From assembly GCA_016234305.1 (NCBI GenBank), contig JACRFM010000021.1, forward strand, positions 1-28,575: a stretch of 28,575 nucleotides of DNA, in the 5' to 3' direction. The notes below the pieces were generated by a model. That model had not been told where the DNA came from. It searched no databases and saw only the letters and a program-made list of their open reading frames with translations. Both the position numbers and the translations under genes were made by a program. Below are positions 1,727 to 24,410 of this stretch, piece after piece (the stretch's first letter is position 1; each line of letters begins with the position of its first letter). Source of the stretch: Candidatus Kerfeldbacteria bacterium (lineage in GTDB: Bacteria > Patescibacteriota > Patescibacteriia > Veblenbacterales > UBA10138).

Positions 1727-5125
<3,399 letters not shown>

Positions 5126-16070: not shown

Positions 16071-16096
16071 GAGCGGATTCAAATTTGAATCCGCTC
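16071..16096 (+). terminator. Intrinsic terminator separating DUF218 from the RT unit
   Basis: Perfect 26-bp palindrome GAGCGGATTCAAA|TTTGAATCCGCTC followed by TGTTTATTT. Confidence 0.75.
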
Positions 16097-16103
16097 TGTT
16101 TAT

Positions 16104-16132
16104 TTGACGAAAGGTACCTTTTCTATTAAGCT
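16104..16132 (+). promoter_or_regulatory. sigma70 promoter of the ncRNA-RT unit
   Basis: TTGACG (16104-09), N17, TAAGCT (16127-32); predicted TSS near 16139. Confidence 0.65.
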
Positions 16133-16138
16133 ATGGCC

Positions 16139-16360
16139 AGCCGGCAGAGTGAACGGTTCTTAAAAACGTTCTTTTTTCCAAGGGAACGAGGCGGTCAGAA
16201 TCTGGCCGCCGCCCAAAATAGCCTTGTTTAATAGGCATAGTTGACGCGTGCCAGTTGAGTTGAGGCATATTTATCAATACCAGATATTTATAAGTCGACG
16301 GAACACACTTAGGAGTCGCTTTATTAGCGGCTCCAGCCGGTGTTCTTTAAAAATTAGCAA
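16139..16360 (+). ncRNA. Candidate RT-associated structured RNA (msr/msd-like)
   Basis: No ORF of 60 aa or more. Hairpins at 16167-88, 16190-210 and 16301-45 (inner stem 16312-34), plus weaker stems. G-U pairs favour the plus strand. Lies directly upstream of a retron-type RT. Confidence 0.6.
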
Positions 16361-17620: not shown

Positions 17621-18187
17621 TTACGCCCGTTCCACGTAGTCGCCGGTTTCGGTGTTGACGATTATCATTTCATCGTTCTTTATAAACAGCGGCACATTGA
17701 TGATAAGGCCGGTTTCCAACTTGGCCTGTTTAGCGCCGCCGGTGGCGGTATCGCCTTTAACGCCGGGCGGAGTTTCCACTACCTTCAGTTTTACTTTTTT
17801 AGGCAATTCCACGTTAATCGGCTGGTTGTTGAAATTCAGAATATTCACTTCCACGCCGTCAGTCAAATAGCCCACTTGTCCACCCAAAGCTTCGCGGGGA
17901 AAATCAAACTGTTCAAAAGATTCCTGGTTCATAAAATGGCAGCCAGTATCGTCGGCATACAGGAAATTAGCGCGCAGGCGGGCCATGTCAGCTTCTTCCA
18001 CTTTGTCGCCCGGTTTAAAGGTTTGCTCCAAGACCTTGCCGTTTAGGAGATTACGCAACTTGGTGCGCATAACCGGCTTGCGCTGCGCGGTGCGCATAAA
18101 AGACGATTCCAGCACTAAATAAGGCTCATCATTAACCAAAATGCTTAAACCGTTGCGGATGGAATTGAGTGAGGGTAAAACTGCCAT
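17621..18187 (-). CDS. efp: Elongation factor P
   Basis: VMRTKLRNLLNG, FLYADD, PPGVKGDTATGG-KQAKLETG, VPLFIK...VNTETGDYVERA. Confidence 0.97.
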   Translation of the reverse strand: MAVLPSLNSIRNGLSILVNDEPYLVLESSFMRTAQRKPVMRTKLRNLLNGKVLEQTFKPGDKVEEADMARLRANFLYADDTGCHFMNQESFEQFDFPREALGGQVGYLTDGVEVNILNFNNQPINVELPKKVKLKVVETPPGVKGDTATGGAKQAKLETGLIINVPLFIKNDEMIIVNTETGDYVERA

Positions 18188-22473: not shown

Positions 22474-23283
22474 ATGTTAGAGGAGGCTGACTATAGAAAT
22501 TTTAAATCTAGTTTTGTTTTCTTGGATGAAACAGGTTTAATTCATAGTAATCGCGATCAATTTTTTGCTTTAGGTATATTAAAGTCAGACTATCCTCAAA
22601 AATTTTATCGGGAAATTAGAAAAATTAGAGATAAGTACAGATATAACGAAGAAATTAAGTGGGCTAAATTAGACCGAAAGATTAGATTTGATGTTGCCAT
22701 TGAAGTTTTTAATGCCTTTCTTGCTGATAATTCAGTTACTTTTAATTGTATAATTCTTGATAAGAAGGAATTAGACTTTAAGGGTTATTTTGATAACGAT
22801 TTATCTAAAGTCTATCGTAGTTTTACTATAGCTTTGTTGAAGCTAGCCATAGGCAAATATCCTGACGAGGTATTGGTAGTTTTAGCTGATGATTACTTTG
22901 TTCCTGAGGGTATAGAATTAGAAGAAACAATAAAAAAATTTATAAATAATCATTATAAAAAATTTGTTATAGCTGGAGTTTGTCAAATTAATTCTAAATC
23001 GTCCGATTTATTGCAAATTACTGATTTAATACTGGGAGCTACTTTGTATGACCTTAAAAGATCTAGGGGCCTAGTTAGTAAGCAGAATACTTTTAAAAGG
23101 AAATTTCTCAATTTTTTATATCAGAAATTAACTATAAAGAATTCTTTTTTTGTTTCTTTTAATGGGCATATGAATAGAAACTTTACTTTTTCTGGGAATA
23201 AAGTAAGAGCTACTATATTTGATTGTAAAAGATCGAGAGTAAACAAATATAACAAAAAACAAGCCATGACCCACAACGGGTGA
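22474..23283 (+). CDS. DUF3800 domain protein (RNase H-like fold, putative nuclease)
   Basis: FVFLDETG, EIKW, NSKSSDLLQITDLILGA; visibly more AT-rich codons than the neighbouring add. Confidence 0.8.
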   Translation: MLEEADYRNFKSSFVFLDETGLIHSNRDQFFALGILKSDYPQKFYREIRKIRDKYRYNEEIKWAKLDRKIRFDVAIEVFNAFLADNSVTFNCIILDKKELDFKGYFDNDLSKVYRSFTIALLKLAIGKYPDEVLVVLADDYFVPEGIELEETIKKFINNHYKKFVIAGVCQINSKSSDLLQITDLILGATLYDLKRSRGLVSKQNTFKRKFLNFLYQKLTIKNSFFVSFNGHMNRNFTFSGNKVRATIFDCKRSRVNKYNKKQAMTHNG

Positions 23284-23326: not shown

Positions 23327-23355
23327 AGTATATATATATTTAGAATTTTTGTCAA
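23327..23355 (-). promoter_or_regulatory. Near-consensus sigma70 promoter pointing antisense into DUF3800
   Basis: TTGACA (23355-50), N17, TATACT (23332-27). Confidence 0.7.
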
Positions 23356-24410
23356 TAGCATGTATGCGTCCACCACATATTGGACTTTTGCGGGTTAGAT
23401 TCAAGGAACATTAGGTATTGTACTGGGGATAGCTTGTTTCCGAAAGCGCAATGTGGTCGTTCCGTGTTATACCACAGAAGATACTCCATGAGTTTTTTGT
23501 TAAATACATTCGGTTCAAGAAGGAGATATTCATGGTAATCAGTGAATTCTTCTTGGATAGTACGGTTAAAGCGTTCGGCGTGGGCATTCATCTTGGGTGT
23601 TTGGGGATAGGTATGCCAATGGGTTTTGTACAACTGTCGTAAACGTAGATCAAAGTGCTTCATAAACTCACTGCCGTTGTCAGTCAGGATATATTCCAGC
23701 GGGTAGGGAAACACTGCCTGTACCAGAGCAAAGAACTCTTGCGCGGCTTGGCTGGCGTGGCTGGTGGTACTCCACGCAAAGGTGAATCTGCTGTCTAGAT
23801 CGGTGAAGGTAATGACGTACCGCCTGCAACCATGGATGAACTTTTCAATGGTGTCAAAACCACCACAATGTCCGGGATGAGTAGCTTTAAAATACTTGGG
23901 TTTTCTTAGGACTTTTGTTCTTTTCTTGGATTTAATCTTGCCGAAGTGGCTGACCTTTTGCGGGAAGATGCGTAACCCCCCGGCATCATTAATTAATCTG
24001 CCGATGGTGGAAGTTGATGGGCAGATTGCATTGCTTGTTAAACAGAACTTTTGCAACAAAGTATGTAGCTTATCTTTGCCCAGATTAGGGTGGAGTTCCC
24101 GTAAATTAGCGATCTCTTGGGTGATGGCAGAAGGCCACTGGCGTTGCCGTTTGTTAGGCGGCGCTGGGGATTTCTCATTCAAGGCTTCTAGTTTGCCACC
24201 ACCGTCATTAAGCGCTTGTTTCCATAGAAACAAAGTGGACCGTTTGACTGGAAAAGCATCCAGCGTTGCCTGCAGACCGTGATCTGCCCAGAATTTTAGC
24301 ACTCTGGTTTTGTGCTTGGCTTTGGGGGTAATCATATACCGCCAGCGTAGCCCGTATTGCCAAGCACGCACAAAACCATGTGTACCCTTAAATATGTTCA
24401 ATTGTTGCAT
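23352..24410 (-). CDS. IS481-family DDE transposase (HTH plus integrase core)
   Basis: DDE triad in GFDT, TDNGSEF and NAHAERFNRT; the AGGAG SD sits in hairpin GACTCCT-N6-AGGAGTC (24413-32). Confidence 0.9.
   Translation of the reverse strand: MQQLNIFKGTHGFVRAWQYGLRWRYMITPKAKHKTRVLKFWADHGLQATLDAFPVKRSTLFLWKQALNDGGGKLEALNEKSPAPPNKRQRQWPSAITQEIANLRELHPNLGKDKLHTLLQKFCLTSNAICPSTSTIGRLINDAGGLRIFPQKVSHFGKIKSKKRTKVLRKPKYFKATHPGHCGGFDTIEKFIHGCRRYVITFTDLDSRFTFAWSTTSHASQAAQEFFALVQAVFPYPLEYILTDNGSEFMKHFDLRLRQLYKTHWHTYPQTPKMNAHAERFNRTIQEEFTDYHEYLLLEPNVFNKKLMEYLLWYNTERPHCAFGNKLSPVQYLMFLESNPQKSNMWWTHTCY

Follow-up and report, generated by a model that had tools for sequence, protein, structure and literature searches.

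A conserved structured RNA upstream of a stand-alone retron-clade reverse transcriptase in Patescibacteria is a candidate retron-like msr-msd RNA

Introduction

Retrons are understood as systems made up of a reverse transcriptase (RT) together with a non-coding RNA (ncRNA) plus a toxin. In a Candidatus Kerfeldbacteria bacterium (assembly GCA_016234305.1), an intergenic gap at 16139–16360 of a 28,575-nt stretch of contig JACRFM010000021.1 (the whole of which is hereafter called the window) separates a gene assigned to DUF218 by Pfam, on one side, from a 403-aa RT open reading frame on the other. The question raised by this locus is whether the gap encodes an RNA that serves the RT and, if so, what kind of RNA it is. 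An initial annotation, made from the sequence alone, had proposed a putative RT template RNA with a non-canonical msr-msd fold, built from twin short hairpins, a long 3′ hairpin and a switchable GAACG/CGTTC pairing. Here, this proposal is followed up by analysis of the RT, of the fold of the window RNA, and of homologous loci.

Results

A retron-clade RT with its own predicted promoter

The RT protein matches Pfam RVT_1 and carries the motifs NAxxH (NALVH at residues 93–97, region X), YADD (244–247) and ITG (293–295, region Y, VTG-type), within which H97, D246, D247, T294 and G295 are invariant across 32 homologs. Searches with PADLOC and NCBIfam returned retron RT models only, with types III-A, II-A, XI and XII scoring alike. 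When an AlphaFold2 model of the protein (pLDDT 93) was compared with the PDB using Foldseek, the best matches were all retron RTs (Eco7, Eco2, Ec86, Ec78, Ec83 and Eco8), while group II intron RTs and those of DRT9 and DRT2 ranked below them (DRT2 39th, TM 0.40). By sequence and by structure, the enzyme belongs to the retron clade. Assignment to a retron type via the PADLOC and NCBIfam models was tried and rejected, as no model proved specific: all 32 RTs match types II-A, III-A, X, XIII, XI, XII and others about equally. Judged by these model scores, the RT fits none of retron types I–XIII.

About 100 residues extend the protein beyond a typical 300-aa retron RT (protein positions ~119–198 and 300–340), and these were modelled as confident helices (pLDDT >85). 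Against retron RTs of ~310 aa, the Foldseek TM-score normalised to the query was ~0.57 at best, indicating that much of the RT model is not superposed. A phage origin was also considered and set aside, IMG/VR holding no close homolog of the RT and its best partial matches being 24–33% identical.

Sequence signals around the gap suggest a self-contained transcription unit. The upstream DUF218 gene ends in an intrinsic terminator, which isolates the cassette from upstream transcription, and this is followed by a putative sigma-70 promoter from which transcription would start at ~16138–16140 (Table 1). The −10 box of the window is weak, and a generic promoter scan did not call it. Among 28 homologous loci, a regular-expression search recovered a TTGAC-type box and a TAnnnT box, ending 47–110 nt before the hairpin termed hp2 below, in 21; most of the loci without a match show a similar box by eye. 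In most loci, the helix P1 described below begins 1–4 nt past the predicted start. A terminator scan of the interval between the RNA and the RT gene found none. The RNA is predicted to be the 5′ part of the RT mRNA, both being made as one transcript from the RNA's own promoter. The host genome (0.91 Mb, 95% complete) contains a single RT, and the RNA is likewise present once.

The leader folds into a closed, multi-branched structure

An RNAfold-type check, as suggested in the initial annotation, showed that the leader as a whole folds better than shuffled sequences (z = −3.5), with none of 200 shuffles folding as well. The adjacent 9-bp hairpins that had been noted at 16167–88 and 16190–210 were confirmed by their pair probabilities and are here termed hp1 and hp2 (Table 1). 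The proposed 3′ hairpin stood in part: its inner stem was strongly supported, while the outer GAACAC/GTGTTC extension was present in the minimum free energy (MFE) fold of the window and found no support in the family (see below). The inner hairpin sits between two helices, P2 and P1, to form a three-way junction with single-A linkers. Helix P2, with its two parts P2a and P2b, and the conserved tail at 16342–52 are features that the initial annotation did not contain.

Table 1 Features of the RNA–RT locus, in window coordinates.
Feature	Position	Strand	Basis or detail
Intrinsic terminator of upstream DUF218 gene	16071–16096	+	Terminator scan: 11-bp stem, then T-run
Putative sigma-70 promoter	16104–16132	+	TTGACG, 17-nt spacer, TAAGCT
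P1 5′ strand (a1-like)	16140–16145	+	Pairs with 16336–41
Linker A	16146		Between P1 and P2a
Candidate branching G	16147	+	First G past P1, after A16146; candidate by position only
P2 5′ strand	16147–16160	+	P2a 16147–51, 4-nt bulge, P2b 16156–60
hp1, 9-bp hairpin, sequence variable among relatives	16167–16188 (16167–75/16180–88)	+	Pair probability 0.65–0.98
hp2, 9-bp hairpin, 3-nt loop, sequence-conserved core	16190–16210 (16190–98/16202–10)	+	Pair probability 0.95–1.0
Variable middle domain, candidate msd-like template	16211–16299	+	Fold uncertain
P2 3′ strand	16300–16310	+	P2b 16300–04, P2a 16306–10
Linker A	16311		Between P2a and 3′ hairpin
GC-rich 3′ hairpin, 9 bp, 5-nt loop	16312–16334 (16312–20/16326–34)	+	Pair probability at least 0.97
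Linker A	16335		Between 3′ hairpin and P1
P1 3′ strand (a2-like)	16336–16341	+	Pairs with 16140–45
Conserved pyrimidine-rich (U-rich) tail	16342–16352	+	Consensus UUCUUUAA; predicted single-stranded in family fold
Retron-clade RT, 403 aa	16381–17592	+	Pfam RVT_1; retron RT models; AF2 structure

In the window sequence taken alone, the pair probability of P1 and P2 was ~0.07–0.09, and the thermodynamic optimum takes an outer 3′ stem (GGAACAC at 16300–06 with GUGUUCU at 16340–46). The gap between the two folds is just 2.5 kcal/mol (−75.8 for the consensus P1/P2 fold versus −78.3 for the MFE), and P2 formed spontaneously in the window fold when P1 was enforced. The P1 duplex of the window was calculated at −12.3 kcal/mol, versus −6.3 ± 2.1 kcal/mol for non-cognate flanks, none of 25 of which were better.

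The same element order recurs upstream of homologous RTs

A protein search recovered about 30 RT homologs at 32–48% identity, with loci drawn from genome and metagenome collections. The window together with the 27 homolog loci that had enough upstream DNA made up the family set (n = 28). Homologs with titled genome records were mostly from metagenome-assembled genomes (MAGs) of CPR/Patescibacteria (Brennerbacteria, Saccharibacteria, Peribacteria and Paceibacterota). In all 28 loci, the order of elements was promoter, P1, P2, hp1, hp2, variable middle, 3′ hairpin and tail. On the 5′ side, the loci have a TTGACA-type promoter, a 5′ strand at the predicted start, an A-rich linker and a second strand that ends in a GGCUU-like sequence, followed by (G/A)UAAA. 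On the 3′ side, the variable middle is followed by a purine-rich strand, the GC-rich hairpin, a short strand, a UUCUUUAA-like tail, the ribosome-binding site and the RT. Folded independently, nearly all of the loci have the same three-way junction in their MFE structures: the 5′ end pairs, as P1, with the bases that immediately follow the 3′ hairpin, and the second strand pairs, as P2, with those that immediately precede it.

Individual elements differed in how far they were kept. hp2 was found in 28 of 28 family loci, and an hp1-type hairpin ended 0–7 nt before it in 25 of the 28 MFE folds. The middle domain spans ~35–190 nt (~60–190 nt in the element order of the 28 loci) and is different in length and sequence in every relative, with hairpins that differ by lineage, and the 3′ hairpin of the relatives is just 8–12 bp long. 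P1 is followed by 1–3 A and then G in most relatives, with L004 and L007 having 'AA' directly before P2. The tail keeps a fixed distance to P1 and not to the ribosome-binding site; no conserved pairing partner for it was found across the family.

Variants of hp2 and the P1-closed plan were also seen upstream of RTs with 27–30% identity (L010, L013, L021, L098–L102, L150 and L158). The 3′ hairpin is missing from a distant compact subgroup (L100, L102 and L150), in which P1 and P2 are continuous, and the universal core is thus P1/P2, hp1, hp2, the variable region and the tail. Compact versions of the RNA, associated with RTs of 27–28% identity, were located at L098 603–740, L100 150–300, L102 1990–2150 and L150 2815–2970, and their hp2 variant consists of GGCAG, a 3-nt loop and CUGCC.

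Covariation supports the family fold and ties it to the RT

RNAalifold analysis of eight family members recovered three elements that carry compensatory changes, namely P2, hp2 and the 3′ hairpin. A covariance model (R1) was built from these eight members, which included neither the window nor its close relatives; P1 was left out of the model because, in the MAFFT alignment, its register with respect to the junction is not the same in all subgroups. R1 matched the window at 16145–16352 over its full length (20.2 bits, E about 0.002–0.01). In the R1-made alignment of 21 matches, 95.3% of cells were standard pairs and 18 of 27 pairs showed double changes; these counts were drawn from related sequences and, since the alignment was fitted to the model, lean towards structure. 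None of 500 shuffles of this alignment reached the observed value, and slid partners were 26–50% paired. Broken down by element, 97.8% of cells were paired in hp2 (three pairs with compensatory changes) and 96.6% in the 3′ hairpin (7 of 8 pairs with compensatory changes), and compensatory changes were present at 8 of 10 pairs of P2.

As the register of P1 varies between subgroups, P1 and P2 were tested by an alignment-free duplex permutation, in which the 5′ region of each RNA was paired with its own 3′ flank versus the flanks of unrelated family members. Cognate pairing stood out for both P1 (z = −5.8, or −7.0 using the first 20 nt only) and P2 (z = −6.9); none of 2000 permutations did as well. 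Reversed-strand controls still gave z values of −2.7 and −1.9, indicating that base composition contributes part, but not most, of the signal in this test.

In a subclade alignment of the window, L081 and L164, RNAalifold returned P1, P2b, hp1, hp2 and the 3′ hairpin. Two compensatory changes in P1 distinguish the window from L081, and further ones were seen between L001 and L083. P2b also shows compensatory change: GCUCU/GGAGC in L081 and L164 corresponds to GUUCU/GGAAC in the window (a C-G to U-A change). The GCCGGC (16140–45)/GCCGGT (16336–41) pairing, which the initial annotation had picked out as the only a1/a2-like one, is thus the family-conserved helix P1. Covariation among homologous leaders, on which that annotation had made its proposal depend, was found for P1, P2, hp2 and the 3′ hairpin.

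The distribution of the RT is patchy: two genomes out of 61 from the same family and class had it, that of the window and G003. R1 matched only those two genomes, in both cases directly upstream of the RT, with no other match at E ≤ 0.05. Taken together, these data indicate that the region is a conserved RNA gene, whose structured product is a partner tied to the RT.

Two further loci deserve mention. At L167 4477–4620 (+), a weak full-length R1 match (18 bits) falls inside the RT coding region and is probably spurious. In a Peribacteria MAG (L008), the sequence upstream of position 3001 precedes an RT of 30% identity and contained neither the hp2 motif nor an R1 match; the RNA of this branch may have been replaced, or may be too diverged to detect.

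Pairings specific to the window

The outer 3′ stem competes with P1 and P2, and its conflict with P1 had been recognised in the initial annotation, which had taken the outer stem to be the solid element and P1 the doubtful one, and the comparative data say the reverse. Tested as a conserved alternative, the outer stem was rejected. Its cognate test gave z = +1.2, pairing of the tail with the purine-rich strand was no better than that of shuffled tails (−3.9 versus −3.85 kcal/mol), and the stem is impossible in L081 and L164, where the homologous GGAGC serves P2b. In view of this lack of family support, the outer stem is lineage-specific, and what the family conserves is the a1/a2-like pairing.

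Two other pairings of the initial annotation fared less well. Closure of a mid-domain by GTTGAC/GTCGAC (16240–45/16294–99) had a pair probability of 0.006, and the region is variable in relatives. The switchable GAACG/CGTTC pairing reached a probability of 0.016, and the homologous bases form P2b in L081 and L164. A near-identical direct repeat (GTTCTT, then an A-run) was noted at 16156–16166, from P2b, and at 16342–16353, in the tail, and it is this repeat that makes the outer 3′ stem possible in the window. Its use as a template-jump signal was considered and discarded, as family-wide likeness of the two motifs equalled that of shuffles (z about −0.1). All three features, namely the GAACG/CGTTC switch, the GTTGAC/GTCGAC closure and this repeat, are thus peculiarities of the window.

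These results bear on the possibility that the initially proposed fold is the functional one, with the extended 3′ hairpin (the outer stem together with a 5x5 loop) and the GAACG/CGTTC toggle acting as a conformational switch and GCCGGC/GCCGGT being incidental. Such a switch would agree with the presence of the outer stem in the MFE fold and with the complementarity of CGTTC to both GAACG copies. Given that the outer stem lacks cognate-specific or sequence-level support in 28 relatives and cannot form where GGAGC is used for P2b, that the GAACG/CGTTC hairpin has so low a probability, and that P1 is conserved with compensatory changes, we regard a switch of this kind as highly improbable.

The existence of two near-isoenergetic folds in the window (P1/P2 and the outer 3′ stem), and the location of the structure in the RT gene's 5′ UTR, from which no terminator separates the coding region, are also compatible with a purely cis-regulatory leader, which would affect how stable the RT mRNA is or how it is translated (for example in RT autoregulation) and would never be reverse-transcribed. 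We consider this very unlikely. The alternative fold is not conserved, and the tail holds its distance to P1 instead of to the ribosome-binding site. Moreover, an RT needs a template, the genome has a single RT and a single copy of this RNA, and known relatives in the enzyme clade all template on an adjacent ncRNA (established retron biology; PMC7736814). A regulatory role alone would leave unexplained why this RNA is retained by an RT for which there is no second candidate template.

Gene neighbourhoods

No conserved effector gene was found near the RT, and eight homologous loci have unrelated housekeeping neighbours. In the window, a DUF3800 gene (22474–23283, +), called by PADLOC as candidate system PDC-M04A, lies 4.9 kb from the RT and is adjoined by an rve-type integrase/transposase gene (23352–24410, −). 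Type VII retrons use DUF3800 as their effector domain. As a candidate trans effector, however, the gene was rejected, being present in 11 relatives that have no RT and absent from G003, which has one.

Discussion

Our results indicate that the RNA is an uncatalogued family on an unclassified, effector-less branch of retron RTs. With regard to its function, we favour, with moderate confidence, the explanation that 16138–16352 is the ncRNA partner of a stand-alone retron-clade RT, found mainly in CPR/Patescibacteria, and that it is a retron-like msr-msd candidate. A retron-clade RT, an adjacent RNA, terminal repeats, two hairpins, a hypervariable region before a2 and A-G after a1 together match an msr-msd RNA. 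The initial annotation was largely right in its observations, and in its interpretation to the extent that the RNA is structured, has a retron-like plan and departs from the canonical form; its weighting of the individual pairings is not borne out by the family.

Under this msr-msd reading, the RNA folds into a closed, multi-branched structure, with P1 joining its ends in the manner of retron a1/a2, P2 (16147–60/16300–10) stacking inside P1, hp1 and hp2 at the place of the retron msr stem-loops, and the variable middle and GC-rich 3′ hairpin on the a2 side. By analogy with retrons, the RT would recognise hp2 (with hp1) and prime on the 2′-OH of a G next to P1, for which G16147 is the best candidate by its position. 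Copying would start just 5′ of the a2 strand (~16335, leftwards) and pass through the 3′ hairpin before P2 and the variable domain, to yield an msDNA-like molecule.

Several observations argue against full msr-msd membership. No G past P1 is invariant, a2 has no single long msd stem beside it, the 'msr' and 'msd' sides are paired with each other by P2, a helix that canonical retrons do not have, and the loci have neither an effector nor a type-specific RT model. In addition, a search with retron ncRNA models, which the initial annotation had suggested as a check, was negative: cmscan of 16139–16360 against Rfam 15, retron msr included, gave no match at E ≤ 10. The RNA might instead be the dedicated partner and template of the RT and be used in a non-retron way, with P1 and P2 merely shaping it and no 2′-5′ branch being formed. 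Examples would be unbranched, protein-primed or de novo-primed cDNA synthesis (as in DRT/UG systems), or a scaffold that keeps the RT inactive. The lack of an invariant branch G, the departure of the fold from canonical msr-msd together with the missing Rfam msr match, the predicted single-stranded state of the conserved pyrimidine-rich tail, and the fact that no effector gene is conserved, which is also true of the two-component DRT2 system, are all in keeping with such use. Set against these, the RT is of the retron clade by sequence and structure, with the DRT2 and DRT9 enzymes ranking far below, and the 5′/tail direct repeat of the window is not conserved. We therefore hold non-retron use to be possible but doubtful.

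A DRT2-like mechanism in particular is unlikely. The DRT2 (UG2) defence system resembles the window family in consisting of an RT and an upstream structured ncRNA only, with no effector gene; it differs in that its RT is of another clade, and the window family has neither a stop-free repeat unit nor conserved repeats bracketing a template. Stop-free frames were not enriched versus shuffles across the 28 RNAs (L081 and L164 have 42 and 33 open codons, respectively), so that a never-ending open reading frame of the DRT2 kind is not supported.

A further idea concerns the role of the pair as a whole. It may constitute an autonomous, toxin-free two-component RT–RNA system, in which the cDNA or the RT–RNA complex would itself be the functional product; we think this unlikely. 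If true, it could provide phage defence by a new route or fill a domesticated cellular role in reduced CPR genomes, and a way of priming or templating that is new for the retron RT clade would be defined by the conserved hp2, the U-rich tail and the three-way junction.

Comparison with the canonical msr-msd of Retron-Eco1/Ec86 (type II-A) brings out both sides of the msr-msd reading. As in that system, the RNA of the window family lies directly upstream of a retron-clade RT and, as predicted here, on the same transcript; its ends are closed by inverted repeats (a1/a2, equivalent to P1), next to which come 1–3 msr-type hairpins; and a variable region precedes a2, with the window having A and then G after a1. 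Unlike it, the window family has an extra helix, P2, between the msr and msd sides, a short GC hairpin at a three-way junction in place of one long msd stem, and a conserved pyrimidine-rich tail after a2, and it has no invariant branch G, Rfam msr match or effector gene.

Stand-alone (msr-msd)-RT cassettes have been described in the Retron-Eco5 (Ec107) branch of RT clade 2 and in clade 11 (Mestre et al. 2020, PMC7736814). Whether these orphan cassettes use unknown effectors in trans or have a different function was left open in that work, both being regarded as possible (PMC7736814). The window family shares with them a retron RT and ncRNA with no associated protein cluster. The Ec107 branch and clade 11 are, however, found mainly in Gammaproteobacteria/Bacillota and Actinobacteria and have ncRNA models of their own, whereas the window family is mainly from CPR; its RT has about 100 extra residues, and a dozen other retron types in PADLOC give it scores at least as good as the Ec107-like model does. 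More recently, candidate ncRNAs were predicted de novo for protease-less type XI-like retrons of Bacteroidota/Bacillota (Toro 2026, PMC13712802). These too are conserved RNAs with two or three stem-loops and a1/a2-like flanks upstream of divergent retron RTs; compared by description only, those lineages differ in having WYL or DnaB_C accessory genes (PMC13712802), of which window-family loci have none. Patescibacteria are not mentioned in PMC13712802, and the CPR family is covered by neither PMC7736814 nor PMC13712802.

The RNA–RT pair combines a retron-type enzyme with a closed, covarying RNA, never with an effector, in genomes of ~0.9 Mb, which makes it a clean test case for what the retron core does alone. 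The comparative fold provides mutational targets in P1, G16147 and hp2, a covariance model now exists for an RNA family absent from Rfam, and retron cores that are compact and stand alone attract interest as tools for writing DNA.

A final observation relates to the 3′ side of the RT gene. In the window, the next gene is efp (elongation factor P), in convergent orientation (17621–18187, −), and efp also lies 3′ of the RT in L166 (3163–3741, −) and L167 (5104–5682, −), two loci whose RTs are just 37–38% identical. The upstream neighbours differ among all three loci. The adjacency to efp could reflect either repeated insertion at this site or a position of long standing.
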